The notes under the pieces were generated by a model, which saw only the letters and a program-made list of their open reading frames with translations, made no database searches and was not told the DNA's origin. The position numbers were made by a program, and so were the translations under genes. Shown piece by piece: positions 6,913 through 24,119 of a stretch of DNA of 64,000 nt (positions within the stretch are counted from its first letter, which is position 1; each line of letters opens with the position of its first letter). The DNA is from Candidatus Krumholzibacteriota bacterium (lineage in GTDB: Bacteria; Krumholzibacteriota; Krumholzibacteriia; JAJRXK01), in the NCBI GenBank assembly GCA_963764625.1, contig CAVXTH010000006.1, positions 138,029-202,028 of the forward strand, given 5' to 3'.

Positions 6913-8277
6913 ATGAATCTCGAGCAGATCCTGGCCTTCGTCTTCGTTCTCGGCGTGGTCGTCATCATCCACGAGGGAGGGCACTTCCTCGTGGCCAAGT
7001 CGGTGGGGGTCTACGTGAAGACCTTTTCCGTCGGCTTCGGCCCCAAGCTGCTCCGCAAGCGCTGGGGAGGGACCGAGTACGCGCTCTCCGCCGTACCCTT
7101 CGGCGGCTATGTGAAAATGGCCGGCGAAGGTGCCATGGAAGAGATCCAGGACACCGGCACCGGCGGCGAGGTGGACAGCGAAGGCGAGGTCATCCCCCCC
7201 GAGCAGTATTTTTCGAGCAAGTCGCCCTGGCAACGGCTGGCCATCGTGGTCGCGGGTCCTCTGGCCAACCTGGTGCTGGCGCTGGTGGTGATGGTCGGAC
7301 TGGTCTGGGTAGGGGGCGTGCCGGTGATCCCGGTGACCGAGGTGGGGAAGGTGGTCGAGGGTGGCCCCGCGGCCGAGGCCGGGCTGCAGACGGGCGATCA
7401 AATTCTTCAGGTGGCGGGAACCAGGGTGACCACCTGGGACGGCGTGCTCGATGAAATCGTGGAGGAGACCCAAGCGAAGCATCTTCCTCTGGACATCACC
7501 TACGAACGTCAGGGGGAAACCAAGACCGCGAAGCTCACACCTCTCAAAGATAACACGAGCGGACGCTGGCGCATCGGAATGGACTACCGGCACGACACGC
7601 GCGTGGGCACGGTGAAGAAGGGGGGAGCGGCTTGGCGCGCCGGTCTGCGCAGGGGCGACGTGATCGTAAGCATCAACGGCGAGGAAATGAAGGATTACGG
7701 ACAGATTGCCAAAGTCGTCAACGAGAGCATCGGGGTTCCTCTGGAGATCGCCTGGACGCGAGGCGGAAAGCCCTACCACGCTACCGTCGTTCCCCAAGCA
7801 GCCGAGGTACCGATCGATTTCAAGAATGTCGAGACGGTGGGACGCATCTACTACGAGCCCTACCGGGAGAAGCGTCCGGTGAGCTTCGCCGAAGCGGCCA
7901 CGCTCGGCGCGCAGGCGACCTGGAGGACGGTCGATCAGACCGCCACCTTCCTGGTGGTTCTGGTGCGGGGTGGAGCCTCGCGGGACGCGGTGAGCGGTCC
8001 GGTGCGCATCGCGCAGTTCGCCGGCCAGATGGTGGAGTGGGGTTTCGACTACCTACTGGGATTCCTGGCCCTGTTCAGCGTCAACCTCTTCCTGCTGAAT
8101 CTCTTGCCGATCCCGGTTTTGGATGGAGGGCACGCGGCGTTCATCACCTACGAGTTGATCACACGACGTCGTGCCGATGAGAGAATTCAGACGGTCGCCA
8201 CCCAGGTGGGGTTCGTCCTCCTCCTTCTCCTCATGGCCTATGTCATCACCATGGACGTCATCAAGGTCGCGAGCTGA
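6913..8277 (+). CDS. rseP: RIP site-2 metalloprotease (RseP/MmpA family, M50 with PDZ)
   Basis: MNLEQILAFVFVLGVVVIIHEGGHFLVAK (HExxH in TM1). PDZ-like middle region. C-terminal ...LLPIPVLDGGH... motif. Confidence 0.85.
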   Translation: MNLEQILAFVFVLGVVVIIHEGGHFLVAKSVGVYVKTFSVGFGPKLLRKRWGGTEYALSAVPFGGYVKMAGEGAMEEIQDTGTGGEVDSEGEVIPPEQYFSSKSPWQRLAIVVAGPLANLVLALVVMVGLVWVGGVPVIPVTEVGKVVEGGPAAEAGLQTGDQILQVAGTRVTTWDGVLDEIVEETQAKHLPLDITYERQGETKTAKLTPLKDNTSGRWRIGMDYRHDTRVGTVKKGGAAWRAGLRRGDVIVSINGEEMKDYGQIAKVVNESIGVPLEIAWTRGGKPYHATVVPQAAEVPIDFKNVETVGRIYYEPYREKRPVSFAEAATLGAQATWRTVDQTATFLVVLVRGGASRDAVSGPVRIAQFAGQMVEWGFDYLLGFLALFSVNLFLLNLLPIPVLDGGHAAFITYELITRRRADERIQTVATQVGFVLLLLLMAYVITMDVIKVAS

Positions 8278-8300
8278 CGATCTCCGGCCCCCGAGGAGGG

Positions 8301-8690
8301 TCAGGGTCTCGGCTTGGCGGTTTCGGGAGACCCTTCCCCGGGCTGGCCACTGGTGGGGCTACGCTCTGACCGCAGAGGGGCTCGCAGGCTGTCCTGCAGG
8401 GCTTGGAAGAGGAACTGACCCCGGCTCGGCTCCTCCCAGAGCTTCTGGATCCGTTGGCTGAGACCGGTGGTGTCGGAGTGAGCGAGGAAACTGTCCAATT
8501 GAGCCTGGGCGCTGTCGGGATACTGTTCGGCGAGGATCCTAATCTCAGATAGTTTGAGCAATTGCCCGAGCAGGGGCCGATCCTCGGGGTCCAGCGCTTT
8601 CTGCCGCTTCTCGGAGCACGCCGACAAGCTCAGGACCAGGGCCAAAGCCGCGAGAAGGCGTCGAAGCCGGTAGGAGGGCGTAACTTTCAT
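8301..8690 (-). CDS. Small lipoprotein of unknown function
   Basis: MKVTPSYRLRRLLAALALVLSLSAC lipobox signal. GAGGA RBS before the second ATG. Convergent with rseP. Confidence 0.55.
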   Translation of the reverse strand: MKVTPSYRLRRLLAALALVLSLSACSEKRQKALDPEDRPLLGQLLKLSEIRILAEQYPDSAQAQLDSFLAHSDTTGLSQRIQKLWEEPSRGQFLFQALQDSLRAPLRSERSPTSGQPGEGSPETAKPRP

Positions 8691-8790
8691 GGTTGTCCTC
8701 ATCTGCGGTTGGAACCTATAACAGCGGAAGGACTTTGGCTACTAACTGGTCGAATCGCAAGCATCAGGTCGTCGGGAGCAAGGGAAGGTC

Positions 8791-10848
8791 TTGGACGCCT
8801 CGCGTCGAAATCATCTTCGGATGAACGCTCTCTCACTCATGGCCGCTCTCCTGCTGTTGAGTGTGGGCCTTCGTGTCGCCCGGGCGGACGACGAGCTCGA
8901 CTATGGGCTCGAACAGAGACTGGTCGCCTCGATCACCATCGACGGCGCGGAGAGTTTCGAGGACAGCCGCATCAAGGACCTCCTGCCCTTCGGCGAACCG
9001 CACTGGTACATGCTCCTGAGCTCTCCTCACTACACCGAGGATCTCCTGCTGCTCGGTGTCGATGCCGTGCGCAGCTTCTATCGCGCGCAGGGGTTTCACT
9101 CCGTCACCGTGGATGGCGAAGCGACGGACCGTGATTCGCGCCACGGTGACAAGATCGCGATTCACATCGTGGAAGGCCCGCGAACGCTCATCTCCAGCAT
9201 TCGATTCACTGGCAATTCGCCACTGGACGAAGACGAGCTGAGCTCGCGCCTGGTGCATCCAGCCGGTAGCCCGGCGCCCTTCGTGAAGTCCGCCTACGGT
9301 CGCGACGTCTACGCGCTGCGCTCGGCGCACTTGGCCCGAGGCTTTCTCGGCACCAAGATCCAGTTCGACATGGACGAAAACGAAGATAAGGTCGCACTCA
9401 CCTTCCACATCGATACCGGGCCCGCCTACCACATCGAGCGAATCGACGTGGAGGGGAACAGAGAGGTGAGGGGAGAGCTGATTCGCCGCGAGTTCCGGTT
9501 TGCGCCGGGCGACATCTTCGATCTGGAGAAGATCGTGCGAACTGAATCGGATTTGCTGGAAACCGGGTGGTTTCGCGACGTCGGGTTCACTCCGGTCGAC
9601 TTGGACACTCTGGCCAGCACCTGTGCCCTGAACCTTCACGTGGTGGAAAGGAACAGCGGCTACTACGAAGTCGGTGTCGGCGCGGGCGACAATTCTCAAC
9701 TCAGGCTCACCGCCGCCTGGGGTGACCGGAATTTCTTCCGCAGCGGCAAGGGGCTCAACGCGAGAGTTCGGCTCCTGTGGGGTCTGGAGGACATACTCGA
9801 CATCGACCGGCGCATCGTATTCGACCACCGGGAAGAGCTCAACTACGTGCACCGAAGGCTCTTCGGAAGCCGCTACACGATGACGCTCAGCGGCTTCTTC
9901 GACCGGCAGAGCAGAGGCTCCTCGGGAGTCGCGGTGGAGAAACTGGGTCTGCTGGGGAGCACGACCCTGTGGCGGTACCGGGCACGCAGTCTCGAGCTGG
10001 AGCTCTCCCACGAACGCGTACGCAAAGTCCTGCTGTCGCAGGTGAAGGATCTGAGCCCCGCGGACGGAGTTCTCCCGCAGGTCCAGACCGGGAATTCCAC
10101 CACGAATTCAGTTCTTCTGCTCTACACCCGGGACACCCGCAACAGTCTGTTCGAGCCCAGCGATGGAAGTCTGCGTCAGATTCTATGGCAGACCGCCGGT
10201 GGCCCCGTCTTCGCCGGCGACAACTCCTTCCACAAAGCGGTCGCCACCTGGGCCGGATTTTTCGGCCATGAAGACGGAAGCGTGCTGGCCCTGCGCATGC
10301 AGGCGGGCTGGGCCACGCCATGGTACAAGAGCGGCGGCAAAGGGGTCCTCGGCGTTCCTTTGGAAAACCGGTTCTTCGCCGGCGGTCAGCGCAGCGTACG
10401 CGGCTATCGGGAAAACAGTCTGGGGCCCAGGCTCACGCAGCAGGACCAAGAACTGGTCCTGGACGATCGCTTTCTTCTGAATCACCCGGCCGCGGGCGGA
10501 GAAGCATTGCTGGTGCTCAACGCGGAGCTGCGATTGCCCTTCCCTCTGCTTTCGCGTTGGGGCTTCGGACTGATCCTCTTTGCCGACGGTGGAAACGTCT
10601 GGGAAGACTGGTCGAAGGTGAAGTGGAAGGATTTTCGTCTCGCCTCCGATCCCGAGGGCAGCAGCCCCACCACGATCTACGACTTTCGCACTGGAGTGGG
10701 ATTCGGTTTCTTGTATCACACACCGGTCGGTCCGCTTCGTCTGGAATACGGCCTTCCGCAAAAGCGGGTCAAACTGGTCGGCGAAGATGGGTCCACCGAG
10801 ATCGACCCGCAGCATATCTGGCACTTCAGTCTAGGATTCGCGTTCTAA
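8791..10848 (+). CDS. tamA: Omp85-family outer-membrane assembly protein, TamA-like (three POTRA-like repeats plus beta-barrel)
   Basis: Signal peptide. POTRA-like repeats (e.g. IERIDVEGNREVRGELIRREFRFAPGDIFDLEKI). C-terminal barrel ending ...HFSLGFAF. Directly followed by a TamB-like gene. Confidence 0.75.
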   Translation: MDASRRNHLRMNALSLMAALLLLSVGLRVARADDELDYGLEQRLVASITIDGAESFEDSRIKDLLPFGEPHWYMLLSSPHYTEDLLLLGVDAVRSFYRAQGFHSVTVDGEATDRDSRHGDKIAIHIVEGPRTLISSIRFTGNSPLDEDELSSRLVHPAGSPAPFVKSAYGRDVYALRSAHLARGFLGTKIQFDMDENEDKVALTFHIDTGPAYHIERIDVEGNREVRGELIRREFRFAPGDIFDLEKIVRTESDLLETGWFRDVGFTPVDLDTLASTCALNLHVVERNSGYYEVGVGAGDNSQLRLTAAWGDRNFFRSGKGLNARVRLLWGLEDILDIDRRIVFDHREELNYVHRRLFGSRYTMTLSGFFDRQSRGSSGVAVEKLGLLGSTTLWRYRARSLELELSHERVRKVLLSQVKDLSPADGVLPQVQTGNSTTNSVLLLYTRDTRNSLFEPSDGSLRQILWQTAGGPVFAGDNSFHKAVATWAGFFGHEDGSVLALRMQAGWATPWYKSGGKGVLGVPLENRFFAGGQRSVRGYRENSLGPRLTQQDQELVLDDRFLLNHPAAGGEALLVLNAELRLPFPLLSRWGFGLILFADGGNVWEDWSKVKWKDFRLASDPEGSSPTTIYDFRTGVGFGFLYHTPVGPLRLEYGLPQKRVKLVGEDGSTEIDPQHIWHFSLGFAF

Positions 10849-10852
10849 GACC

Positions 10853-13800
10853 ATGTGGGTGAAGACGACACGGATCACTCTCCTCGTGGCGCTGTTGATC
10901 GCGGTGACGGTATTGTCATGGCTGGCCGCGCACCCCAGGCTCTACGCTGGCCACGTTTCCCGGGTCATCACCCAGAATCTCCTTGGTCAGACCGGCGCCT
11001 CCTTTCGCTACGAAAGCCTCGAGGGGAACGTCCTGGGGGGGGACCTACGTCTTTTCGGCGTCGACCTGAGCTGGCAGGGGTTGGACGGTAGCTTCGCCTA
11101 CCTGCGGGCGGACACGCTGGAGGTTTCGTACGACCTGACCGATCTGTTCAAGGGCCGCGTGCACTTGTACCGTCTGGCCATGTTGTCGGCTCATGGCATG
11201 ATTCGGCGTCGCGAGTTGAGCGAGCCGATGCAGAAGCACCAGCGTTCCGGTCCCGGTTTCCCCACCCTTGCCATCGAAGAGGGAATTCTGCGTGGACTCG
11301 AACTCCGCATCATCCAAAGCGATGGCACCGAAGACCGACTTGAAAACCTGAGCTGGTGGGGGAGCGTGCGGACACGGGACAAGAAACTCGTAGTGGATAC
11401 CCGTGCGCTCGGCGGGGGCTGGCCCCAGAGGAACCTGTACCTGAAGTCGGTGTGGGGACGCACAGAGGTTTCCTCGACCGGTATCATGGTGGCGAATCTA
11501 CGCGTCGCTTCCGACTCCACCCGAGTTCAACTCAACGGAACCTGGAATAAAGAGGATGGTCTCGATGTGCAAGTCGAGGCGGAGAGCTTGTGTCTGAGTG
11601 AGTTCCTGGAAGCTCTGGGGAAGCCTAGTCCGATCCTGGCGGACTTCGCGGGAACTGCGAGGGTCGAAGGTTTCTCCCCCTTCGAGCTGAGCGGCAAGCT
11701 CTCCGGAGTGATCGACCACTACACCTTTTCCGACACCGATTTCGCCCTTACGGTCGATGGATCGGATCTACAGCTCAGCCGAGCGAGCGGCCTCATCTTC
11801 GGTTCCCCGGCCAAGCTGCATGGCACCGTCGATACCAGTACCGGCGACCTATACCTGAGCGGTGAAGTCGAAAACCTCGACTTGAGCCAACCCTGGACCA
11901 TCGATGACACCCAATGGCCGAGCTCGGACCTGAGCGGGGACATCGATCTGAGCGTCGCGACGAAGGCTCCGGTGCGTGTCGACCTGAAGGCCAGCGGGGT
12001 AAGAGGGCGAATCGAGGAGCTGCCGGTTGACTCCCTGAGCGGCCGGGTCCATTTCCAAGAGGAGCACGGCACGCGGTTCGAGGGAATTCGTGTCCTCACT
12101 CACGGCACCTGGATCGCGGGTTCCGCCACTCTCGACTCGCTCAACGTCCTGGATTTTCCCTTTACCGCCCGTGCTAATGATCTCTCCTCCTGGCGCACCG
12201 CCTACCAGCTCCCCTGGGACCATGCGGGGAGCCTGCAGGCCACAGGTACGTTCTTCGGACCCATCGACGCGCCCACCCTTCAGATCGATGGCGCGCTCGA
12301 CTCCCTCTCTGGCTTTCGTATGCAGGCAAACAAGCTGCATGGGAGCTTCAAGATCAGCCCCTGGAACGATCTCGAGACCGTCGACGGACAGATCGAGGCG
12401 GCTGATTTCTTCATTGGGGGCGTACGTCTGGGAACCCTGAGGAGCCAATTTCAGCGCCGCTTTCCGATCGTCGAGGTGCCGCAGCTCGAAGTGGCCGACG
12501 GAGATTCCATCCTGAGCTTGAAGGGGAAGGTGGAGGAGAAAGGGAACCGCGCGCTTGTTTCGATCGAGTCGGCGAGCTTCGACCTGGGCCCGCGGAAATG
12601 GACCCTGGCCGAGCCGGGTGAACTCGAGCTCGGAAAGGGCTGGGTGCGCAGCCACGGGCTGAGTGTCCGCTCCGCCTCGGGAGGCTGGACGGTTCGTGGG
12701 GGGGTGGACAGCCTGGGAGTCATGGATCTCCGCGTCGATCTGATGGAGGGCGATCTGGAACTCCTTCCCCATCTGGGCCTGGGACCGAGCGATCTGGAGG
12801 GCACACTCAACGGCCGCGTGATCGTGGGAGGAAAGCGCGAGAATCCCGAGCTGCACATCGACCTTCGCGGGAACCAGCTCAGAGGGTTCGGGCGGCGCCT
12901 CGATCGCCTGCGGCTTCTCACTTCCATTTACGGTTCGAAAGTCTCGGTGGATTCGCTTCAGGTGCATTCTCCGCAGGGGAATCTCTCCCTCACCGGTTCG
13001 CTCGATCTGCTACGCGACGACGCGTTGCATTGGCTGGCCAAGCACCCCAAGAGCTGGCGCGAATTCCTGGCCCCGGCACAACCAAATCTGCAGCTTTCGT
13101 GTCAAGATCTGAACAGCCGTTACTGGATGGATCCTCAGGCCAAGGACGAGGATTTCGGCCGTGCCACGGCGGGACTCTCGATTCGAGGAACGCTCCAGAA
13201 GCCGCTAATCCAGGGCGAAACCGAAATCGCCAATCTGGTCACCGGCGGAGGTTCGCTCGTTTTTCCCGCCCTCCGGTCCCGGGTCGAGTCAGATGGGGAG
13301 GATTTGAAGCTCAGCCAGGGAATCATCCTCACCCCGGATCCCTGGCTCCGTTTCAGCGCGAGTCTTCCGCTGAAACTCTCGGCTGTCGAGGCGCCACAGT
13401 GGGGTGGCTCGAAGGGAGCCGAGGTGGAATTGACCTCCGACGGCGAGGTGGAGTTACGGCGCTTGGGGCCCATCCTGCCCATGTTGAGCGAGATTTCCGG
13501 AAAGGCGGAGCTGCTGTATCGCGCACGCGGTTCGATGGATCATCCCAAGATCGAGGGTTACCTGCGGGTGCACGACGGCATCGCGCAGTTGGAAGGCAGC
13601 CTAGAGCGGCTTCGCGATGTCGAGATCGATGCTCCCATTCAAGACGGAGTGATGCAAATCCAGAAATTCACCGCGCGAGAAGGCTTGAAAGGTACGGTGA
13701 ACGCGACGGGAGAGGTCGACTTCGACGGACTTCTTCCCGATGACATTCAGATGGACATCTCCGCCGATCGATTCCTCTTCGCATCCATCCTCCACCTTCG

Positions 13801-14719
13801 CGCCCTGCTGCGCAGCGACGATCTCCACATGAGCCTCAAGAGACCGGCGCCCCATCTCGCTCGCAGGCCTTATTTCAGCGGGACGATCGACGTCATCAGG
13901 GCCCGCTACACCGGAGAATTCGACAACAAGGCCGGGGGAGAGGCGCTCGGCGCAACGACCACCCCTTCGTGGCTCGCCAATCTCCACCTTCGGGCGCCGC
14001 GCACCGCGAGAGTGCAGAATCGCACTGCTGAACTGCTGCTCGACGGTGACGGTGATCTGGTGCGCGATCTCGACGGTCTGCACTTCTACGGGCAAGTCGA
14101 GATCCCCCAAGGGCGCGTACCCATCTTCAACAACGACTTCAACATAGAGCGGGGGACCCTCGACTACAGCCGGGCCCGCGGTCTGGTCCCTTCGGTCGAC
14201 ATCGTGGCCAAGACCCGGGTGCGAGATTTTCGTTACGAGGGGAGTACTAGCGCGGAGTTGGAGGAGATCACCGTATATTTGACCGGGACGTTCACGAACT
14301 TGCACACGCGTTTCGAGAGCGCGAGCGGCTACGATGAGGAGCGCATCATCCGGCTCTTGGCCGGGATCAGCGAACAGCCGGGAGGCAGTGCGTTGGCCGA
14401 TACCGGATTCAAGGCCGGTTTGAACTTCATCGAGAGGTCGATCGCGGCGGAGATCCACGGGATCGACACCCTGGACATCGAGACGGAATCGGCCTCGATC
14501 TCCGAAGCGCAGCGGATGCGGGTGGCGGTGGGGAAATATCTATCCCCCGATCTCTATCTCCGGTACAGCCAGGGTGTTTCCATCACGGAGCGGGCTTTGT
14601 TTCTTGAGTACCAGATGAACCGTCGCTTGCGACTCTCTTCGGAGTTCGGTACCGGTCTGCAGAGCGGGGCTCCGACGACTACCTTCAACGTGGACTTGAA
14701 GTACCGGGTCGAGTACTGA
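10853..14719 (+). CDS. tamB: Translocation and assembly module protein TamB-like (DUF490 C-terminus)
   Basis: 1288 aa with an N-terminal TM anchor and a long beta-rich body. C-terminus ...VGKYLSPDLYLRYSQGVSITERALFLEYQMNRRLRLSSEFG...KYRVEY is typical of TamB/DUF490. 4-nt gap after tamA. Confidence 0.8.
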   Translation: MWVKTTRITLLVALLIAVTVLSWLAAHPRLYAGHVSRVITQNLLGQTGASFRYESLEGNVLGGDLRLFGVDLSWQGLDGSFAYLRADTLEVSYDLTDLFKGRVHLYRLAMLSAHGMIRRRELSEPMQKHQRSGPGFPTLAIEEGILRGLELRIIQSDGTEDRLENLSWWGSVRTRDKKLVVDTRALGGGWPQRNLYLKSVWGRTEVSSTGIMVANLRVASDSTRVQLNGTWNKEDGLDVQVEAESLCLSEFLEALGKPSPILADFAGTARVEGFSPFELSGKLSGVIDHYTFSDTDFALTVDGSDLQLSRASGLIFGSPAKLHGTVDTSTGDLYLSGEVENLDLSQPWTIDDTQWPSSDLSGDIDLSVATKAPVRVDLKASGVRGRIEELPVDSLSGRVHFQEEHGTRFEGIRVLTHGTWIAGSATLDSLNVLDFPFTARANDLSSWRTAYQLPWDHAGSLQATGTFFGPIDAPTLQIDGALDSLSGFRMQANKLHGSFKISPWNDLETVDGQIEAADFFIGGVRLGTLRSQFQRRFPIVEVPQLEVADGDSILSLKGKVEEKGNRALVSIESASFDLGPRKWTLAEPGELELGKGWVRSHGLSVRSASGGWTVRGGVDSLGVMDLRVDLMEGDLELLPHLGLGPSDLEGTLNGRVIVGGKRENPELHIDLRGNQLRGFGRRLDRLRLLTSIYGSKVSVDSLQVHSPQGNLSLTGSLDLLRDDALHWLAKHPKSWREFLAPAQPNLQLSCQDLNSRYWMDPQAKDEDFGRATAGLSIRGTLQKPLIQGETEIANLVTGGGSLVFPALRSRVESDGEDLKLSQGIILTPDPWLRFSASLPLKLSAVEAPQWGGSKGAEVELTSDGEVELRRLGPILPMLSEISGKAELLYRARGSMDHPKIEGYLRVHDGIAQLEGSLERLRDVEIDAPIQDGVMQIQKFTAREGLKGTVNATGEVDFDGLLPDDIQMDISADRFLFASILHLRALLRSDDLHMSLKRPAPHLARRPYFSGTIDVIRARYTGEFDNKAGGEALGATTTPSWLANLHLRAPRTARVQNRTAELLLDGDGDLVRDLDGLHFYGQVEIPQGRVPIFNNDFNIERGTLDYSRARGLVPSVDIVAKTRVRDFRYEGSTSAELEEITVYLTGTFTNLHTRFESASGYDEERIIRLLAGISEQPGGSALADTGFKAGLNFIERSIAAEIHGIDTLDIETESASISEAQRMRVAVGKYLSPDLYLRYSQGVSITERALFLEYQMNRRLRLSSEFGTGLQSGAPTTTFNVDLKYRVEY

Positions 14720-14752
14720 TGAGCAGACACCCCTTCAGGATTCCTCGATAGA

Positions 14753-17700
14753 ATGAGAACGCATATTCGTTCGGCAATTAAGGTCATGCTGGCTTCGGCC
14801 GGACTGCTCGCGCTCCTTTCGGGCGCCGCCCTCGCGCGCAACAAAGTGCAATACGACAACTTCCACTGGCAGGTTCTGAGTACCCCGCACTTCGAGATCT
14901 TCTTCTACAAGGGAGAGGAGACTCTGGCCGCGAGGGCCTCGGTCATCGCCGAAGATGCCTACGTCCGGCTCAGTGGGGTCTTCAAGCACGATTTCCAAAA
15001 GCAAATCCCCTTCATCCTCTATGCATCCCCCAACGACTTTCAACAGACCAACATCAGCGACGAGCTCATCGGCGAATCCACCGGAGGCTTCTCCGAGCCG
15101 CTCCGCAATCGCGTGGTGCTTCCCTATCCCGGCGACAACGAGGCGTTCGTGCACGTGATCAACCACGAGCTGGTTCACGTCTTCATGTTCGATCTGGCCT
15201 ACAAGAGCACCGCCTCGGGTGCCGCGCGCCGTGCCCTCTTTCCGATCGACCTCTGGTTTGCCGAGGGAGCGGCCGAGTATTTCTCTACTGCGGACGGATG
15301 GGACAAGACCACCGACATGTGGATGCGCGATGCGACCATCTACGACTGGATCGCTCCGCTGGACAAGATCTACTCCGGCTATCAGGTCTACCGGGAAGGG
15401 CAGGCGGCGCTGCGCTACTTGGGCTTGACCTACGGCCACGAAAAAGTCGTCGAGTTCTTCAAGGAGGTGGGGAAGGTACGCAACGTGGACCGGGCGCTGG
15501 AGATGAGCATTGGGCTCAACACGAAGGATTTCTCGGCCGAATGGGAGAAGTGGCTCAAGCACAGCTACTGGCCCGTCTATCAGGACAAGAAAGAGGCCTC
15601 GAGAATCGGCCGCCGCATGACCGACCACGCGAAGGATCACTACTATTTCGCGCAACAGCCGGCGATCTCGCCCGACGGAAATGTCATCGCCTTTTTCAGC
15701 GATCGAGAGGGCTTCGTGAAGCTCTTTCTGATGGACGTGGCCGACAAGACCATTCTCTCCACTCTGGCCACCGGGTACCGCAGCGACCGTTTCCTGAGTT
15801 TTCATTCCTACGACAGCGGAATCAGCTTCGATCCCCAAGGTCACCGTCTGGCGGTGGTGGCCAAGAGTGGGGGGCGTGAAACTCTCTACATCCTACGCGT
15901 GCCAGACGGCAAGATCCTCCAGCACATCAAACTTCCAGTGGACATCGCGCGGAGTCCGTCCTGGTCACCCACAGAGAACCAGGTCGTGGTGGTGGGAAGT
16001 AAGGATGGCAACACCGATCTCTTGCTGGTGGACTTGAAGACGGAAGCGGTCACGAAGCTCACACGGGACCTCTCCAGCGAGTTCTCTCCTTCGTGGATGC
16101 CCGACGGCAAGAGCATCGTCTACTCCGCCTCTCCCAATCCGGTGATCGATGTCGGAATTCAAAAGGACACCGATGGAGGGGAGCGCATGACGAGGGTGGA
16201 TTTCTCCAACACCCAAAACGTCGAGCAAATGGAAACCAGCCGTGACCTCTATCTCTTGGACCTCAAGACCGCTAAGAGAAGCAGGCTTCTGTCCACTCCA
16301 GGGGACGACTCGGCGCCGGTCGCGGTGGATGACGAAAGCGTCGTCTTCGTGAGTGATGCGAGCGGAATTTCCAATCTCTATCACTACAATCTGCGGACGA
16401 AGGAGCTGCATCGTTTCACCGACGTGCTGACGGGCATTTTCCAGCCTTCCCTCAGCCGCCAGGCAGGCCGTCTGGCCTTCACCGCATTTTCCAACGGCGG
16501 TTACGACATTTTCGAACTGGAGAATCTCTCGCAGTATGTGAAGGAACACTCCTATCCCGACCCGGTGCCGCCGCCGCCGGTGGACGAAGACCGGCTGAGT
16601 CTTGCTGCGAACACCGAGCCGGATAGTACGGCCACCAACCCTCCTTTGACGGTGAGAGACCTACTCTCTGGCGAATCGGTTCCCGCCGAGGAGCCCGAAG
16701 CGCCGGCGCCACAAGAGCCCGAGGGCACAAAGGAGAACGGAGGCGAGGAAAAGCCGGCGAATCTTGGGGACAAACCGGCGGGGACGATCACCAAGTACAA
16801 GCCGCGTTTCAGCCTCGATCCCCTGGGGAGTGGGAGCATCGGCGGAGTCTACTACTCCTCCGGGCTTGGACTCGGCTTCGCCAACATCATCAGTCTGAGC
16901 GACCTTTTGGGGAACCACCGCATCCAGTTTTTGGTGAACTTCTACGGTTCGCTCAAAGACAGCGACCTGGCCGCGAGCTACTACTATCTGAAACGGCGGG
17001 TGAATCTCGGCTTCGGCGTATTCCACTACAAGAATTTCTTCAACAGCAACTTCACCACTCTCGGGGAAGTCTTCGATCGGAGCCGGCTCTTCAGCGAGCG
17101 AAACTACGGGTTCTTCGGGCTGGCCAGCCGACCGTTCTCCACCTTCAACCGTCTTGATTTCGAGGTGCAGGCCTTCGTGGCGGATCGAACTTTCTACGAA
17201 TTGGATACGTTGAGCGGCTACTATTTCGAGACCTCGCATACCAAGGCGCAACTCATCCAACCCAGCCTCTCCCTCATCCACGATTCGGCGTTCTACGGAC
17301 CCAATGGCCCGCTCACTGGCAGCCGTTGGACTCTCAATTTCTCGCCCGCCTTGCCAATCGGGCGCGATGGCCTCGATCGGGTGACCGGCTTCGGGGACTA
17401 TCGCAAGTACATTCACTTCGGCCGGGGCAACGCCATCGCGACTCGGTTCACCGGGGCCTACAGCAACGGCAGCGATCCCAACGCCTTCGTGCTCGGGGGG
17501 CCCTACACCCTCAGGGGCTGGGATACCTTCGACTTCGAGAAGAGCGTAGAGGGCGATGATCCCCTCTACCAGAATCTCGTGGGTCGCAAGATGCTGCTCA
17601 TGAACCTCGAATATCGTTTCCCCGCGATCGACGCGGTGTTCTTCGGATGGCCGGGACGGTTCGGTATCGGCGGAATTGGAGGGGTGGCCTTCTTCGACTT

Positions 17701-17908
17701 GGGCAGCGCGTTCGGCTCCGCCTTCAAACCCTTCGGGAAGACCGGTAACGGGAATTTCCGCTTCCAGGACTTCAAGGCCGACTATGGGCTTGGAATGCGC
17801 GTGAACTTCCTCGGCCTCCCCTTCAAGTTCGATTGGGCATGGAAGACTGACTTCGCCCGCACCTATGGAAACATGCAGTTCACCTTCTCGATAGGACCGG
17901 AGTTTTAG
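14753..17908 (+). CDS. Outer-membrane fusion protein: signal peptide, gluzincin-like domain (HELVH...EGAAEY), TolB/WD40-like beta-propeller repeats, Pro/Glu-rich linker, Omp85 (bacterial surface antigen) beta-barrel
   Basis: Signal peptide MLASAGLLALLSGAALA. The FVHVINHELVHVFMFD...AEGAAEYF region carries an HExxH+E gluzincin motif (Peptidase_MA-like). Repeated ...SPDGNVIAFFSDREG... and ...SWSPTENQVVVVGSKDGNTDLLLVDL... segments look like TolB-type propeller blades. The C-terminal ~350 aa (...GRKMLLMNLEYRFP...FFDLGSAF...GLGMRVNFLGLPFKFDWAW...FTFSIGPEF) looks like an Omp85 barrel and ends in Phe. Starts 34 nt after tamB. Confidence 0.7.
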   Translation: MRTHIRSAIKVMLASAGLLALLSGAALARNKVQYDNFHWQVLSTPHFEIFFYKGEETLAARASVIAEDAYVRLSGVFKHDFQKQIPFILYASPNDFQQTNISDELIGESTGGFSEPLRNRVVLPYPGDNEAFVHVINHELVHVFMFDLAYKSTASGAARRALFPIDLWFAEGAAEYFSTADGWDKTTDMWMRDATIYDWIAPLDKIYSGYQVYREGQAALRYLGLTYGHEKVVEFFKEVGKVRNVDRALEMSIGLNTKDFSAEWEKWLKHSYWPVYQDKKEASRIGRRMTDHAKDHYYFAQQPAISPDGNVIAFFSDREGFVKLFLMDVADKTILSTLATGYRSDRFLSFHSYDSGISFDPQGHRLAVVAKSGGRETLYILRVPDGKILQHIKLPVDIARSPSWSPTENQVVVVGSKDGNTDLLLVDLKTEAVTKLTRDLSSEFSPSWMPDGKSIVYSASPNPVIDVGIQKDTDGGERMTRVDFSNTQNVEQMETSRDLYLLDLKTAKRSRLLSTPGDDSAPVAVDDESVVFVSDASGISNLYHYNLRTKELHRFTDVLTGIFQPSLSRQAGRLAFTAFSNGGYDIFELENLSQYVKEHSYPDPVPPPPVDEDRLSLAANTEPDSTATNPPLTVRDLLSGESVPAEEPEAPAPQEPEGTKENGGEEKPANLGDKPAGTITKYKPRFSLDPLGSGSIGGVYYSSGLGLGFANIISLSDLLGNHRIQFLVNFYGSLKDSDLAASYYYLKRRVNLGFGVFHYKNFFNSNFTTLGEVFDRSRLFSERNYGFFGLASRPFSTFNRLDFEVQAFVADRTFYELDTLSGYYFETSHTKAQLIQPSLSLIHDSAFYGPNGPLTGSRWTLNFSPALPIGRDGLDRVTGFGDYRKYIHFGRGNAIATRFTGAYSNGSDPNAFVLGGPYTLRGWDTFDFEKSVEGDDPLYQNLVGRKMLLMNLEYRFPAIDAVFFGWPGRFGIGGIGGVAFFDLGSAFGSAFKPFGKTGNGNFRFQDFKADYGLGMRVNFLGLPFKFDWAWKTDFARTYGNMQFTFSIGPEF

Positions 17909-17916
17909 TCCTTCCG

Positions 17917-20220
17917 ATGCTTCAAGGTCTCAATCCACAGCAGCGGCAAGCAGTCGTGAACACTCGGGGACCCATGCTGGTCATCGCCGGCGCGGGTAGC
18001 GGGAAGACACGCGTGCTCACCACTCGCATCGCCTATCTCATCAAGGAAGAGGGTGTTCGCCCGGAGAACATCCTCGCCTTCACGTTCACCAACAAGGCAG
18101 CGCGCGAGATGCGCGAGCGCGTCGAGGCCCTCAGCCACGAGGGAAAGCGGGCCTGGATCGGCACCTTCCACGCCACCGGGGTGAGAATTCTGAGGCGCGA
18201 GGCCGAGCGCTTGGGCTATTCGCGAGAGTTCAGCATTTACGACGCGGACGATAGCCGCGCCGTGATCAGGGCGATTCTGAAAAGACGCCACGCCGATCCC
18301 AAGGAATTCACCCCACGCGCGGTTGCTACCGCCATCAGCCACTTCAAGAATCAATCCATGAGTCCGCGGGAAGCCCAAGAGGACGCGATGACGGGATGGG
18401 AAGAGCGCATGGCCAAGGTCTACTCCGAGTACGAGAAGGAGCTGCGCTCGAACCAGGCCATGGACTTCGACGATCTCATCGCGCGCACCGTGGAGCTTTT
18501 CGAGAAGCACCGAGACGTGCAGGAGCGATACGCGGAGCAATTTCACTACGTGCTCGTCGACGAGTTTCAGGACACCAATCCGCTTCAGCTCATTCTGACC
18601 AAAGCGCTCAGCGCGCAGTGGGAGAACCTCTTCGCGGTGGGGGACGACGACCAGGCCATCTACTCCTGGCGGGGCGCGACGGTGGAGAACATGCTCTCCT
18701 TCGAGGAGTATTTTCCCGGCGCCAAGGTTCTGCGGCTCGAACAGAACTACCGCTCTACCGGCATCATTCTCCGCGCGGCGAACGAGGTCATAGCGCACAA
18801 TCGCAAGAGACGAGGCAAGAAGCTCTGGACCGAAGCGGCTGACGGACTGCCCCTCGAATTGTGGTGGGTGGACGACGAAGAGGGCGAAGGGTCGGCGATC
18901 AAGAGCCGGATCGAAGAACTCGGAAGCAGCGAGGGATTTCACCGGCGGGACTGTGTCATTCTCTACCGCACGAACGCACAGAGCCGTGCTCTGGAAGATG
19001 CCTTGCGCCGCGCCGGGCTTCCCTATCAAATCGTGGGAGGAACGCGCTTCTACGAGCGGCGTGAAGTGCGCGACATTCTGGCCTATCTCAAACTGATCGT
19101 AAATCCTTCCGACCAGGTGAGTTTGGAGCGCGTGATCAACTTGCCGCGCCGCGGTATCGGCAAGAAGAGCGTGGAGAGGCTGCTGGAAGCCGCCGGGCAA
19201 CACGATCTCTCGCCCCTACGATTTTGTGAGTTGCACCCCGAACTCCTCGCGAAGTTCTGCGGGAGGGGAGCCTCGCGCATCCAGAGCTTCGTGACTCTCG
19301 TCACCGCGATGCGGCGAATGGCGGAGAGCCAGAACGCGGCCTCGGTGGTGGAGGAAGTTTTGCGCAGCACGAAGTACCTGGAATGGTTGCACGAGGACGA
19401 TCCGGCCACCGCCGAGGACCGGGAAGAGAACGTCCGCGAACTGCTGCACGCCGCCGAGTCGTTCGTGGCGGAGAGCGATGAGGGGCGCCTCTTCGATTTT
19501 CTCGAGTCGGTGGCGCTCTTGGCCGAAGTGGACCGCATGGACGCGGCCGGGGACATGGTGACGCTCATGACCATGCACAACGCGAAAGGACTCGAATTCC
19601 CCGCCGTCTTCGTCGCCGGGTGCGAGGAGAACCTGCTTCCCCACGCCAACAGCATCGACGAAGAGAATCGTCTGGAGGAGGAGAGGAGGCTCTTCTACGT
19701 GGCGCTGACGCGTGCGCGTCAGAGAATATTCTTGAGTGCGGCCGCATTCAGACGGCGTTTCGGGGGATCCGAACCGGCCTACCCGAGCCGTTTTCTCAGC
19801 GAGATTCCCGCGGACATCGTGGTGGAAAAGGGGGAGAGGGTATCTCCCGAGGAGAACTACGGGGTGAGACTCTCCGGAGTCCGCAGGAGAACTCGCGGTG
19901 TCTCCTCGGAGAATTCAGCTTCGCCTGCCCAGGATGCGTACGGAGCCGAGGCGTTTCTCAAGAGCAAGGCCAAACAGAAGGCCCAGTCCGGGAGCGACCA
20001 CGGCTTTCAGGATCACGAGTTCAGCCAGGAAGAGCTGGTCTTCGAGATCGGACAGCGAGTACGTCACCAAACCCTGGGCGAAGGAACGATCACGGAAGTG
20101 GAAGGTTTCGGTGAGCTGACACGTCTCACCATCGAGTTCGGAGATAGCGGCCGCAAGCGGGTCCTGGCCCGCTACGCGAAACTCGAGATTCTCGAAAAGG
20201 ACGGGGACCTGCCGTTCTAG
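17917..20220 (+). CDS. uvrD: ATP-dependent DNA helicase UvrD/PcrA family
   Basis: ...LNPQQRQAVVNTRGPMLVIAGAGSGKTRVLTTRIAYLI... Walker A, with the full SF1 helicase motif series through ...TMHNAKGLEFP...FYVALTRAR... Confidence 0.9.
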   Translation: MLQGLNPQQRQAVVNTRGPMLVIAGAGSGKTRVLTTRIAYLIKEEGVRPENILAFTFTNKAAREMRERVEALSHEGKRAWIGTFHATGVRILRREAERLGYSREFSIYDADDSRAVIRAILKRRHADPKEFTPRAVATAISHFKNQSMSPREAQEDAMTGWEERMAKVYSEYEKELRSNQAMDFDDLIARTVELFEKHRDVQERYAEQFHYVLVDEFQDTNPLQLILTKALSAQWENLFAVGDDDQAIYSWRGATVENMLSFEEYFPGAKVLRLEQNYRSTGIILRAANEVIAHNRKRRGKKLWTEAADGLPLELWWVDDEEGEGSAIKSRIEELGSSEGFHRRDCVILYRTNAQSRALEDALRRAGLPYQIVGGTRFYERREVRDILAYLKLIVNPSDQVSLERVINLPRRGIGKKSVERLLEAAGQHDLSPLRFCELHPELLAKFCGRGASRIQSFVTLVTAMRRMAESQNAASVVEEVLRSTKYLEWLHEDDPATAEDREENVRELLHAAESFVAESDEGRLFDFLESVALLAEVDRMDAAGDMVTLMTMHNAKGLEFPAVFVAGCEENLLPHANSIDEENRLEEERRLFYVALTRARQRIFLSAAAFRRRFGGSEPAYPSRFLSEIPADIVVEKGERVSPEENYGVRLSGVRRRTRGVSSENSASPAQDAYGAEAFLKSKAKQKAQSGSDHGFQDHEFSQEELVFEIGQRVRHQTLGEGTITEVEGFGELTRLTIEFGDSGRKRVLARYAKLEILEKDGDLPF

Positions 20221-20231
20221 GGGATCCCGCC

Positions 20232-22409
20232 TCAGCGCACCAGGGTGACGCGCTGACTGCTCGTGCCCGCGTCCGTCTGCATGCGCAGGAAATAGAGTCC
20301 ACTCGAGACGGCATGTCCGTCGCCGTCACGCCCGTCCCACTGCAGGGAAACCGGTCCCGGTGAAACCCTCCCCGATCTCAGAGTCCGAAGCCTCCGCCCG
20401 GCGACGTCGTAGATCTCCACGCTGAGGGAAGCGTCGCGCTGCGCGTAGGCCGGCAGATTGAAGACCGCTCCGGATGAAGCAATGAAGGGGTTGGGGTAGC
20501 CGGTCTCGAAGGAAATCCCCCCCGGGGTCGAGAACACGGGTGCGGTGTCTTGGTAGATGAGAAAATCTTGGTTGGGATCGACTTTCACCGTGCTTACTTC
20601 GGCGCCGACGGAGAGAGTCGTGTTCACGGTCGTATCCGTGGTCCACACCCAGGCATCGCTGCTATCACCCTGCGCCGTGTAGACCCGCACCGGCACCGGC
20701 AGAAGGAAGTAGTTCGCCGGGTCCTGGCTCATGGTCAAGCGGAGATCCTCACCTTCTGCCCGCCAGCGCGTCTGGAGCCGGCACACCTCGGCACGATGCA
20801 GCCAGGGGTCGAAGAACCAATCCAGGGCACCGCCGTACACCGCCTCTGCGTGCGACTGGAAGTCGGCACTGGTCACCGACGAGAAGCGCAGCGCCGGGTC
20901 GGAGACGTACTCGCGCATCGTCTGCAGCAGCTTCTCCAGCCCCATGCCGGGAAAGCGTTCTTCGAAGACCATGCGAAGCATGTGCAAGACCATTGCACCC
21001 TTCTTGTAACTGACGAGCCCGAACAGGTCCGCCGCCGGCGGATCGACGAGGGAGTGATCGAAGGAGTCGATGTAGTCGAAGAAGCGCAACTGACGATACA
21101 CACGCGCCACTTCGGCCGAGTAGCGGTGCTCCATCCAGATGACCTCGCAGTACGAAGCGAAGCCTTCGTTCAGCCAGATCTCTCCCCACCGCTGCACGTG
21201 CACGCAATCACCGAACCACTGGTGCGAGAGCTCGTGAGCGACTACCCACTCCCACAGGGGACCTCCAGTGATGGAATTGACGGAGCTGTTCACGTAGCTC
21301 TGGGACATGCTAGTGCAGGTCGGGTGTTCCATTCCTCCGCCCCACTTGAACATGGCCATGCCGTAGCGTTGCCTCGCAAAGGGGTAGGGTCCAAACACCG
21401 AATCGAAATACTCGACGAGATCGGGGGTCATTCCCCAGGCGAATTTGGAATCGCCCAACCAATCCACCGCACCGGGAATCTCCGGCTTGGCGATGTAGTA
21501 CTCGATCGGCATGTTCACGGTCTGGCCGGTTTCATAATCGGTGACCTGGGCCGTGTCGCTGTAGAAGTCGTAGTCGGAAATCGCCAAGGAGAAGAGATAC
21601 GCCGGGATCGGCGCGGTCATCTGGACATCGGTTTGCTTGAGGCCGCCGGGAAGGGAACTCTCCACGATTCGCGAGCGGTCGGTTCCCGGCACCACCACGG
21701 TCAACTGTTCGGGACAGACGATATGAATCGAGAAGGGCGCCGCGTCGTAAGGGGTGTCGTGGCAAGGCCACCACGAACGGGCCGACTTGGGCTCGCTCAG
21801 GGTCTGGATGATTGGTTTGCCCTCGAAGGTTCCGCGATTGAATCGATTCAACGCGAAGCCCATGAACCCGAACGAGATGGGCTGGCCGCGGTACTGCACC
21901 GAGATGGTGGTCGAATCGCCGACTGCCAGAGTGGAGGGCAAGGGGATGCTCAGCGTTTCGTCGAGGTGGTTGAAGGTGGAAGGGACGCCGTCGACCTCGG
22001 TGCTCTCCACCTGGATTCCCTCCGTGAAGAGATCGAGGTCGATCGAGTCCATTGGGGCCAGCGCGGTCAGATGTACTTTCACCAGCCCGTAGAGAGAATC
22101 AACGACGTCGCTCACCTGGAGGGTGACTTCGTAGAGCGTGACGTCCATGGGACGATCGTCGCGCTCGATGGGCGTCGCGCGGTCGCGCTTGTTCGAAACC
22201 AACCCTTCCGGCCGGTTCTGAAAGTAGGAGAGCGGCTTGTCCAGTTCATAGAACGCGCGCTCGCCATCGCTGATTTTGGTGTTCGAGGCGTTCCCTGGCG
22301 TGGATTCGTACTTTGCCGCGTGAATGGGTTGGGGCGAGAATGTGAGAGTGACGAGGGTTGCCAGCGCAACGAGCTGGGCCTTATATGCGTACTTAAGGAA
22401 TCTCGTCAT
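20232..22409 (-). CDS. Secreted M1-family aminopeptidase with T9SS-type C-terminal sorting domain
   Basis: Signal peptide. ...VVAHELSHQWFGD...WLNEGFASY gluzincin M1 motifs. C-terminal ~80 aa ...SLSVEIYDVAGRRLRTLRSG...GLYFLRMQTDAGTSSQRVTLVR resembles the Por-secretion (T9SS) tail. Confidence 0.75.
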   Translation of the reverse strand: MTRFLKYAYKAQLVALATLVTLTFSPQPIHAAKYESTPGNASNTKISDGERAFYELDKPLSYFQNRPEGLVSNKRDRATPIERDDRPMDVTLYEVTLQVSDVVDSLYGLVKVHLTALAPMDSIDLDLFTEGIQVESTEVDGVPSTFNHLDETLSIPLPSTLAVGDSTTISVQYRGQPISFGFMGFALNRFNRGTFEGKPIIQTLSEPKSARSWWPCHDTPYDAAPFSIHIVCPEQLTVVVPGTDRSRIVESSLPGGLKQTDVQMTAPIPAYLFSLAISDYDFYSDTAQVTDYETGQTVNMPIEYYIAKPEIPGAVDWLGDSKFAWGMTPDLVEYFDSVFGPYPFARQRYGMAMFKWGGGMEHPTCTSMSQSYVNSSVNSITGGPLWEWVVAHELSHQWFGDCVHVQRWGEIWLNEGFASYCEVIWMEHRYSAEVARVYRQLRFFDYIDSFDHSLVDPPAADLFGLVSYKKGAMVLHMLRMVFEERFPGMGLEKLLQTMREYVSDPALRFSSVTSADFQSHAEAVYGGALDWFFDPWLHRAEVCRLQTRWRAEGEDLRLTMSQDPANYFLLPVPVRVYTAQGDSSDAWVWTTDTTVNTTLSVGAEVSTVKVDPNQDFLIYQDTAPVFSTPGGISFETGYPNPFIASSGAVFNLPAYAQRDASLSVEIYDVAGRRLRTLRSGRVSPGPVSLQWDGRDGDGHAVSSGLYFLRMQTDAGTSSQRVTLVR

Positions 22410-22463
22410 GGGCTCCCAACCTCTTTTTCACTCTCGAGCCTCACCGCTCGGAGAGGATACGCA

Positions 22464-24119
22464 ATGAACCCAGGGGATTCAACGACTCACGCGCGTTCGC
22501 CGATGCCCATGCTTCTGATTTTGGCCCTGTGCCTGCTCGTGAGCGCCTGCGCGAGTCAAGTGACGAACGGCCCGGCCTGGCCCGATGAAGGTTCTTCCGA
22601 AGAGTCCTCCGCAACCGAACTCAAGACCGCGGAGAAAGCTTCCATTCTTCAGCCGCGGCCGCCCGCGGAATACTGGTGGAACCAGCCCAAGGACAAACTG
22701 CCCCACTTGGTGGGAGGGAAGTACCTGGATCATCGGGACAGCCTGGGGTTCTCCGAATTTCGCAAACTCGGGGAAGAGGACCAACGTGATCGACGGCGGA
22801 GCGCCCGCAAGCACCTGGAGAAGGGGCTGGCCCTGGGCGCGAATCGAGTGGCGCTGAACGACTACGCGACCGGAGCGGGTCTGTGTCCCTATTATCCCGA
22901 AATCTGGCTCCACTACGCGGAAGCCGAGATTCAAATGGGGAACTACCACACGAGTCGCTACTTGCTGCAGGGAGTGGAACGGAGCCTTCGCTTTGCCTCT
23001 GGAAGCAGCGAGCAAGAACAGGTCGCGTCGGACTTCTACTATCTCGACGCTCTCGCTTCCTACAATCTGGGTGAGAAGGACAGGGCCCTGGAATCGGCCG
23101 AAAACTGTCTGGCCCTGCGCGGGGGAAACCTGGACGCAAGGCTCCTGCGAGCGAGGTGCCTCACCGATTTGAATCGTTTCGACGAGGCACGAATAGAACT
23201 GAGCCGATTCGAGTTCGGGTCTCCCCATTACGCTCAGGCTCAGGCGGTGCGTGGCGTGTTGGAGATGGACGCGGGCGATCTAAAGAGCGCCGAGCGGGCC
23301 TTCTCCGAGGCCTACGAGTACGGACTTCGCAGCGGCATCCTCGAGAACGATCGGGGCCGGCTGGCCCTGATGCAGAACCGGCTGGACGATGCGGTCGATC
23401 ACTTCGAACGGGCGGTGCGGTTGATGCCCGAGCTCATGGAGGCGCGCAACAACCTGGCGGTGGCTCTGAGGCGCGCGGGGGAAAGCGCTCGAGCCGAACA
23501 GGTCTTGAATCGGGCCATCGCGCTGAACCCGAACTACGCCGCCACCCATTTCAATATGGCGGAGCTGCTCCGCTCTCGCCTGGAAGATCTCAAAGGAGAC
23601 GAGCTGAGACGAACCGCGCGCGAGGCCCGCGAGCACTACGACGCAGCGCTCGCCCTGCACTATCGCCCCAAGGTGATTCTCGAACGCCGAGCCTGGATTT
23701 CTCTTCGTCTCGGAGATCTGGCCGCAGCAGAAAACGACCTGCTCAAACTCACCGGTACTGCGAATCCCGACGGGCGCGTCCTGTTTCTTCTCGCCCATAC
23801 CAAACAGGAACAGAATGATCTCCGCGTCGCGCAGAAACTCTACGAGATGGCGATTCAGAGGGGATATGATGGAGCCGACGTTCACAGCGATCTAGGGGAG
23901 GTGCTGTTGCGACGCGAGGATCTCGAGCGAGCGCGAAGCGAGCTGGAGAAGGCCATCTCTTTGGACGGAAGTCTCGTCGCTACGCGACTCAATCTCTGTC
24001 AGACGCTCGCCGATCTGGGCGATCGTGAGGCGGCCGAGAAGGTCTTGAAAGAAGCGGAAGCGCTGGCCCCCGACGATCCCGCGGTGAGAGCGCAAAGGAA
24101 GGCTTTGGATTCGCGATGA
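22464..24119 (+). CDS. TPR-repeat lipoprotein
   Basis: MNPGDSTTHARSPMPMLLILALCLLVSAC lipobox, then repeated TPR-like helical units (...AEAEIQMGNY..., ...NPNYAATHFNMAELL...). Confidence 0.65.
   Translation: MNPGDSTTHARSPMPMLLILALCLLVSACASQVTNGPAWPDEGSSEESSATELKTAEKASILQPRPPAEYWWNQPKDKLPHLVGGKYLDHRDSLGFSEFRKLGEEDQRDRRRSARKHLEKGLALGANRVALNDYATGAGLCPYYPEIWLHYAEAEIQMGNYHTSRYLLQGVERSLRFASGSSEQEQVASDFYYLDALASYNLGEKDRALESAENCLALRGGNLDARLLRARCLTDLNRFDEARIELSRFEFGSPHYAQAQAVRGVLEMDAGDLKSAERAFSEAYEYGLRSGILENDRGRLALMQNRLDDAVDHFERAVRLMPELMEARNNLAVALRRAGESARAEQVLNRAIALNPNYAATHFNMAELLRSRLEDLKGDELRRTAREAREHYDAALALHYRPKVILERRAWISLRLGDLAAAENDLLKLTGTANPDGRVLFLLAHTKQEQNDLRVAQKLYEMAIQRGYDGADVHSDLGEVLLRREDLERARSELEKAISLDGSLVATRLNLCQTLADLGDREAAEKVLKEAEALAPDDPAVRAQRKALDSR

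Follow-up and report, generated by a model that had tools for sequence, protein, structure and literature searches.

A divergent member of the WD40-like Omp85 subfamily with a predicted zinc peptidase domain, encoded behind bamA-tamB in a Krumholzibacteriota genome

What kind of Omp85 protein carries a peptidase-like domain and a propeller in the place of POTRA domains, and what might such a protein do at the outer membrane? The question is raised by a gene of a Candidatus Krumholzibacteriota bacterium, located in a stretch of 64,000 nucleotides (nt) that is hereafter called the window (assembly GCA_963764625.1, contig CAVXTH010000006.1, positions 138,029 to 202,028). This gene, which I call gene X and whose product I call X, occupies positions 14753-17908 of the forward strand of the window and follows tamB. 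A first-pass annotation, made from the letters of the window alone, stated that no described Omp85 protein was known to have its POTRA domains replaced by a peptidase and a propeller. The statement is wrong because a WD40-like subfamily, with matches to the Omp85 barrel, to TolB and to aminopeptidases, was published in 2014, and the whole of X shows homology to the cluster that holds the first member listed for that subfamily. X adds a new, divergent member to an Omp85 subfamily already known.

Architecture of the gene X product

Canonical Omp85 proteins of the BamA/TamA type carry one or several POTRA domains in the periplasm, N-terminal to the barrel. The open reading frame (ORF) of gene X is uninterrupted across 14753-17908 (+), extends from an ATG start to a TAG stop, encodes 1051 amino acids (aa) and has full-length homologues; the single ORF and the signal peptide proposed in the first-pass annotation are both borne out. 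The Sec-type signal peptide, as read from the sequence, comprises residues 1-28 (14753-14836, +), namely MRTHIRSAIKVMLASAGLLALLSGAALA, with the cleavage site between ALA and RN, and is followed by RNKVQY. The mature N-terminus of the family, (R/K)-N-K-V-Q, is nearly invariant (N30 and K31 are encoded at 14840-14845).

A structural model of X was obtained with AlphaFold2 (AF2), using an alignment of 68 sequences as input. The model is confident, with a mean predicted local distance difference test score (pLDDT) of 85.4 and a predicted template modelling score (pTM) of 0.83, and consists of a low-confidence (low-pLDDT) N-terminal helix (residues 2-18), an alpha/beta region (residues ~30-290), a propeller (~298-590), a disordered stretch (~600-675) and, last, a barrel. 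The high pTM hints at a defined arrangement of the domains, of which it is not proof. No POTRA domain was matched at E <= 0.1 in a Pfam scan of X, as anticipated in the first pass, and the stretch preceding the barrel is disordered in the model. Of the three kinds of Pfam match that had been expected, two were found, PD40/TolB and PF01103 (Omp85; 46.6 bits versus a cut-off of 24), while the match to Peptidase_MA_2 (PF13485) fell below threshold (21.9 versus 32.4 bits). Fold and motif evidence carry the peptidase assignment. Precomputed PF13485 matches are present on many homologues of X.

The peptidase-like domain, of the gluzincin fold (clan MA(E)), spans residues 29-292 (14837-15628, +) and begins directly after the signal peptide. 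It displays the features of that clan, which are an HExxH motif and a downstream Glu acting as the third zinc ligand within a thermolysin-like fold. The putative zinc-binding and catalytic motif is HELVH (residues 138-142, 15164-15178, +); the second motif, WFAEGAAEY (residues 168-176, 15254-15280, +), contains the putative third zinc ligand, E171. Both had been picked out in the first-pass annotation, a reading that conservation upholds: HELVH is invariant in 119 full-length homologues, which reach down to ~31% identity, and in the 68-sequence alignment, and the residues found invariant in both sets are H138, E139, H142, W168, E171, G172, E175, D193, Y213, G216 and Q217. Tyr213 (15389-15391, +), which is 100% conserved, is a candidate transition-state stabiliser and aligns with a Tyr of Vibrio collagenases, while WFAEGAAEY aligns with WWSEGVAEY of M9 collagenases. 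To judge from these alignments, the predicted active site is under strong purifying selection.

To which peptidase family is this domain closest? Comparison of the domain with known peptidases gave values of 16.6 for lugdulysin (M30), 15.6 for ERAP1 (M1), 15.5 for Vibrio collagenase (M9), 14.3 for tricorn-interacting factor F3 (M1), 13.7 for ColT (M9), 13.2 for ColG (M9) and 10.8 for thermolysin (M4). Identity to X is 10-17% for M30 (lugdulysin), M9 (Vibrio and clostridial collagenases) and M1 (ERAP1, APN and tricorn factor F3), and X lacks the accessory domains of all three families. M1 aminopeptidases are characterized by the exopeptidase motif GxMEN, by HExxH-x18-E spacing and by an N-terminal beta-saddle domain. 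X is not one of them: GxMEN is absent, the equivalent segment upstream of HExxH being GGFSEP, H142 and E171 are separated by 28 residues as against the 18 of M1, and the domain follows straight after the signal peptide. The spacing between HExxH and Glu and the WxxEGxAEY pattern resemble, at the sequence level, M9 rather than M1.

The propeller, predicted to be six-bladed and TolB-like (PD40), covers residues 296-592 (15638-16528, +). The first-pass identification of TolB/WD40-like blades is confirmed by the PD40 repeats, by six blades of four strands each at ~298-590 in the AF2 model, and by Foldseek, whose top matches for the propeller among Protein Data Bank (PDB) structures are TolB. The match to the TolB equivalog TIGR02800 is partial (115 bits versus a cut-off of 343) and concerns the propeller portion alone. 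TolB of the Tol-Pal system thus shares the six-bladed PD40 propeller and is the best match in structure and in sequence for residues ~300-590, but its N-terminal alpha/beta domain is missing from X, where the propeller forms part of a larger protein. The propeller is followed by the Pro/Glu-rich low-complexity linker that had been noted in the first pass (residues 593-676, 16529-16780, +), a Pro/Glu/Ala-rich stretch with 16 Pro and 12 Glu in 84 residues and a pLDDT below 50. Across the family, linker length ranges between 45 and 188 aa and A, P, E and D abound, which fits a flexible tether.

The remainder of the protein, residues 677-1051 (16781-17905, +), comprises a conserved pre-barrel segment and the Omp85 barrel. 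The number of barrel strands in the AF2 model is compatible with 16, and strands 11 and 12 are connected by a long loop; in a Foldseek search of the PDB the barrel matches BamA, TamA and Toc75 at E ~1e-9, and its TM score is 0.72 when normalised to the barrel-only TamA structure 8us4. Together with the PF01103 match and the Phe at the last position, these results agree with the Omp85 barrel ending in Phe of the first-pass annotation. The hallmarks of Omp85 barrels are a (V/I)RG(F/Y)-type motif in loop 6 and an (F/G)xDxG motif on strand 13, and X has a counterpart of each. GGPYTLRG (residues 915-922, 17495-17518, +) corresponds to the loop-6 lid lock of the 'VRGY/F' type; it aligns with GGQRSVRG of the neighbouring BamA and is part of a segment in which residues 920-923 read LRGW, with R921 and G922 conserved in 99% of the 119 homologues. 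FFDLG (residues 980-984, 17690-17704, +) lies on predicted strand 13. Invariant barrel residues among the same homologues are G915, G916, E953, R955, P957 and D982, while G984 and F980 are conserved at 99% and 91%, respectively. The strand number and both motifs thus place the barrel in the Omp85 superfamily. The structured segment that precedes strand 1 (residues 677-690, 16781-16822; pLDDT ~80) is nearly invariant at G677, Y682 and D689, and this segment and the nearly invariant mature N-terminus may serve as a plug or for docking.

The 16-strand barrel and the loop-6 RG and FxDxG motifs are common to X, BamA and TamA, whose POTRA domains are missing from X. Sequence likeness between the barrel of X and that of the neighbouring BamA is negligible (BLASTP E 0.26) and the motifs alone align, which excludes a recent duplication of that gene as the source of the barrel.

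Membership in a published subfamily and its breadth

The Omp85/TpsB superfamily was split by Heinz & Lithgow in 2014 (Front Microbiol 5:370; PMC4104836) into ten subfamilies, one of which is called 'WD40-like' or 'WD40-Omp85'. Its architectures are listed in their Table S2 as PF01103 plus several PF07676 repeats, and their Table S3 gives for each member a BamA/TamA barrel, a TolB/tricorn propeller and a 'best aminopeptidase hit', which is to one of the structures 1Z5H, 4KXD, 4FGM, 3QNF or 4AR1. The text of that paper treats the propeller as a BamB/TolB-like platform and is silent on the peptidase domain and its conserved active site. The classification is repeated in PMC11358297, with the wording 'divergent WD40 and peptidase domains', and is also cited in PMC11116518.

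The first member listed in PMC4104836, H1XQ58 of Caldithrix abyssi DSM 13497 (WP_006929601.1), shares a 90%-identity cluster with the homologue P0315, to which X is 31% identical (E 2e-163) from residue 22 to its last residue. Besides this homology, X has the Omp85 barrel with N-terminal PD40/WD40-like repeats replacing POTRA domains and, at its extreme N-terminus, the aminopeptidase/collagenase-like structural match. It is therefore nearly certain that X belongs to the WD40-like subfamily. Like X, H1XQ58 has a signal peptide, an MA-type peptidase-like domain, a PD40/TolB propeller, an Omp85 barrel and no POTRA domain; X differs from it by sequence divergence, by lineage and by the position of its gene after bamA-tamB. 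Gene X adds little beyond another family member, save for this clade-specific place. Automated annotation already names relatives 'Peptidase MA superfamily/Omp85 superfamily domain/WD40-like Beta Propeller Repeat', 'peptidase MA family metallohydrolase' or 'BamA/TamA family outer membrane protein'.

How widespread is this architecture? Of the candidates scored in a first homologue search with X, 792 were significant. Nearly all of the top 120 are full-length proteins, the lowest identities being ~32%, and HExxH is present in all 120. Precomputed matches to PF26549 and PF26550, which probably cover the propeller region, are found on every one of these homologues (P0001-P0120). The nearest named relative is from Candidatus Krumholzibacteria and belongs to the cluster of an 84%-identical homologue.

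A profile of the N-terminal domain was then run exhaustively against 1.84 billion representatives of 50%-identity clusters. At E <= 1e-30 it retrieved 1,218 clusters, a number that rises to 3,631 when the threshold is E <= 1e-10. All 150 top representatives contain HExxH, and in all of them the peptidase domain lies right behind the signal peptide, starting ~25-40 residues in. Among the representatives listed, 112 have a length of at least 900 aa, and each of these has both propeller and barrel, while the shorter ones look like truncated metagenomic fragments; judged from these sequences, the fusion of the peptidase domain to propeller and barrel appears obligate. Finally, a scan of species-representative genomes yielded at least 529 confirmed relatives, in Krumholzibacteriota, Eisenbacteria, Zixibacteria, Latescibacteria, Calditrichota, Ignavibacteria, Chloroherpetonaceae, Marinimicrobia, WOR-3, Bacteroidota and Gemmatimonadota.

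Genomic neighbourhood

The genes upstream of gene X are, in order, rpsB-tsf-frr-uppS-cdsA-dxr-rseP-bamA-tamB, and in this FCB-group genome the housekeeping cluster from rpsB to bamA is intact (window positions 649-10848). Within it, rseP (6775-8277, +), which encodes an M50 protease with PDZ domains, is a positional marker for bamA and is separated from it by ~500 nt to which no gene is assigned. The next gene (8791-10848, +) encodes an Omp85 protein with POTRA domains that had been called tamA in the first-pass annotation. This name does not hold: the protein scores 256.6 bits with the BamA model TIGR03303 (cut-off 297) and 92 bits with the TamA model NF047950 (cut-off 625), and it is the positional BamA because it sits after rseP in the rpsB...dxr-rseP-bamA cluster. 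With translation from Met11 (nt 8821), the probable start, its signal peptide is MNALSLMAALLLLSVGLRVARA; the protein collection has no entry for the exact ORF that opens with the TTG at 8791. The following gene, tamB (10853-14719, +; 1288 aa; PF04357, 112.9 bits), begins 4 nt after bamA. Gene X lies tightly behind it, as had been stated, although the spacer is of 33 nt and not 34, and its stop codon is followed after 8 nt by a pcrA/uvrD helicase gene (17917-20220, +). Operons of bamA and tamB are common outside Proteobacteria (PMC4494059). A scan of positions 6000-22500 for promoters and terminators gave counts at the level of shuffled sequence and nothing in the junctions; co-transcription is plausible.

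The neighbourhood of gene X was surveyed in 80 loci from the at least 529 confirmed relatives. The tamB gene is directly upstream in 14 of the 80, from Krumholzibacteriota, Eisenbacteria, Latescibacteria, UBP1 and unclassified metagenome-assembled genomes (MAGs). Where the contigs are long enough, bamA (11 loci), rseP and pcrA (10 loci) flank the pair in the same order, and the order rseP-bamA-tamB-X is kept across several phylum-level FCB lineages. In 7 Bacteroidota/Ignavibacteria loci (L034, L056, L057, L058, L064, L068 and L070), an AsmA-family protein of ~1500 aa is encoded ~2 kb upstream of gene X, with RNase R in between (for example at 3240-7832 of L056), which is a second, independent nearness of X to the AsmA/TamB superfamily. 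Elsewhere the neighbours are of other kinds: an EPSP-synthase-family gene upstream in Zixibacteria and Ignavibacteria, RNase R upstream in Bacteroidota and Ignavibacteria, and L9 and SMC in Gemmatimonadota. What lies directly upstream is an Oar-like TonB-dependent receptor gene (CarboxypepD_reg, Plug and barrel), at times as a tandem, in 3 loci (L030, 2545-9667; L033, 3564-9501; L063, 700-3237), and an S8 protease gene in L026. A family-wide linkage to TamB/AsmA is not supported, since outside the 14 tamB loci and the 7 AsmA-family loci the gene stands with housekeeping, TonB-dependent receptor, S8 or TPR genes. The linkage to tamB is clade-specific.

Four further features of the window deserve mention. 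The pcrA/uvrD gene is an odd partner for envelope genes, and its adjacency to gene X recurs in 10 loci of the same clade. Convergent to it lies a gene for an M1-family peptidase (20232-22409, -) with a FlgD_ig domain and a C-terminus weakly like a type IX secretion system sorting domain; it holds the same relative position in L001 and L002. This gene overlaps a long ORF (20550-24119, +), of which the real TPR protein is the 3' part (~22500-24119). At the other end of the cluster, the frr ORF (2628-3647) encodes 339 aa, of which residues 174-337 alone are covered by the ribosome recycling factor (RRF) domain. No ORF of its own was seen for pyrH, which would be expected to follow tsf and precede frr; pyrH may be encoded in another frame, or the start may have been set wrongly.

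Proposed function and alternatives

What might X do? In the scheme I propose, X would be exported by the Sec pathway and integrated in the outer membrane by means of its C-terminal 16-strand barrel. The N-terminal module of ~565 aa, a catalytically competent zinc gluzincin peptidase joined to the six-bladed propeller, would then reside in the periplasm, attached through a tether that is flexible and varies in length, and act as an outer-membrane-tethered metallopeptidase, the propeller serving as a substrate filter or docking platform. Omp85 N-termini and TolB propellers are periplasmic. A precedent for this topology is PlpD, a patatin-like Omp85 protein (type Vd), which has an N-terminal enzyme domain and an Omp85 barrel, as X does, and whose enzyme domain is exclusively periplasmic (PMC11116518). 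PlpD differs in that it combines a patatin lipase with one POTRA domain, whereas X combines a zinc peptidase domain and a propeller with a long disordered linker and no POTRA. From these parallels I infer a periplasmic topology, and outer-membrane anchoring by the barrel, activity as an enzyme, what the propeller does and which substrates are used are inferred as well. That X is an active zinc peptidase, tethered to the outer membrane and facing the periplasm, seems on the whole probable.

For such a peptidase the most plausible role would be to degrade, near the outer membrane, envelope proteins or peptides that are unfolded or wrongly assembled. The zinc metalloproteases BepA, YcaL and LoiP act at BAM to eliminate stalled outer-membrane proteins; two of them, YcaL and LoiP, are lipoproteins anchored in the membrane, and BepA has a TPR domain for protein interaction (PMC13067283). 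All three are periplasm-facing HExxH proteases at or near the outer membrane, to which X may be likened by analogy as a barrel-anchored functional counterpart, although they are M48 enzymes with a lipid anchor or none and with TPR, while X would be an M1/M9/M30-like gluzincin with an Omp85 barrel as anchor and a propeller. A specific role in envelope protein quality control, drawn from this analogy, is put forward tentatively. Still more speculative is the idea that in Krumholzibacteria-like FCB lineages the bamA-tamB-X block is also a physical module, in which X would dock to BamA-TamB, or be the outer-membrane partner of TamB by means of a barrel without POTRA domains, and as a barrel-anchored protease would remove outer-membrane proteins or lipoproteins that have stalled, in a manner for which Proteobacteria offer no known parallel; I regard this as doubtful.

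Several observations weigh against this scheme. The Peptidase_MA_2 match of X is below threshold, as reported above, and a literature search on WD40-like Omp85 members gave classification papers and no functional or structural study. The linkage to bamA-tamB is absent in most lineages, where the neighbours are the EPSP-synthase-family, RNase R, L9, SMC, TonB-dependent receptor and S8 protease genes. Moreover, in two loci from Eisenbacteria MAGs (L035, 3654-8697; L044, 7807-12343) rseP is followed, after a gap of ~700-800 nt, by gene X without bamA-tamB, and X is therefore not strictly coupled to tamB. Finally, pcrA also belongs to the conserved block, so that the synteny may merely reflect a stable housekeeping cluster. 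Being clade-specific and shared with an unrelated helicase gene, the tamB linkage is weak functional evidence.

The alternative that best survives is that the tethered peptidase is nutritional and trims imported peptides for catabolism instead of policing the envelope, its propeller, like those of prolyl oligopeptidase, DPP-IV and tricorn-type enzymes, barring folded proteins. The fold neighbours of X do include M1 aminopeptidases and tricorn-interacting factor F3, the propeller gives PD40 and DPPIV_N-type matches, and an M1 peptidase with a secretion tail is encoded nearby in the window. The Oar-like receptors directly upstream in L030, L033 and L063 and the S8 protease in L026 point the same way, but such neighbours occur in few loci and gene X usually lies among housekeeping genes. 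X has GGFSEP in place of the exopeptidase motif GxMEN, and the need for a conserved Omp85 barrel as anchor is left unexplained. I consider a nutritional role unlikely.

Could the barrel instead move the N-terminal passenger across the outer membrane, in a type V-like manner, to yield a surface-exposed protease? This was the historical model for the patatin-Omp85 protein PlpD, is an alternative raised for enzyme-bearing Omp85 proteins in PMC4104836, and is one for which the long disordered linker could in principle thread the pore. The PlpD passenger, however, was shown to be periplasmic (PMC11116518), and loop 6 with its lock motif, which occupies the lumen in Omp85 barrels, is conserved in the family of X. 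The passenger is a compact folded module of ~565 aa that includes a TolB-type propeller. TolB propellers are known from the periplasm only. Surface exposure is accordingly judged improbable.

Equally small is the chance that X is a non-proteolytic assembly platform or a partner of TamB, with the barrel as an active insertase or an outer-membrane dock for TamB and the propeller as a BamB-like scaffold. A 'BamA-BamB fusion' was suggested by Heinz & Lithgow (PMC4104836), and the idea gains from the position of gene X directly after tamB, in a setting that amounts to two Omp85 genes, from the AsmA-family giant ~2 kb upstream in the 7 Bacteroidota/Ignavibacteria loci and from the Omp85 functional motifs kept in the barrel. 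Yet X has no POTRA domain, its barrel and that of the neighbouring BamA have diverged strongly, the linkage to tamB is clade-restricted, and the invariant catalytic HExxH...E...Y set argues for a selected enzymatic function. As for the last possibility, that X results from two genes joined by a sequencing or assembly error, no support for it was found, and it is excluded because hundreds of full-length homologues exist, including one from a cultured organism: independent assemblies show this architecture likewise without interruption, as seen in the 119 full-length homologues, the 80 loci surveyed and cultured Caldithrix abyssi, and the single-gene fusion of the first-pass annotation is real.

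The tethered, periplasm-facing peptidase, a reading also offered in the first-pass annotation, thus remains the favoured interpretation, and its bearing extends beyond gene X. The subfamily is large, reaching most FCB phyla with at least 529 species-level genomes and the 1,218 clusters retrieved at the stricter threshold, and the WD40-like Omp85 subfamily is ancient, with an invariant active site. The role of a zinc peptidase tethered to an Omp85 barrel, once shown, would add to the emerging view, which stems from PlpD, of an Omp85 scaffold reused beyond protein insertion, and the function of the family could reveal how non-proteobacterial diderms police their envelope.

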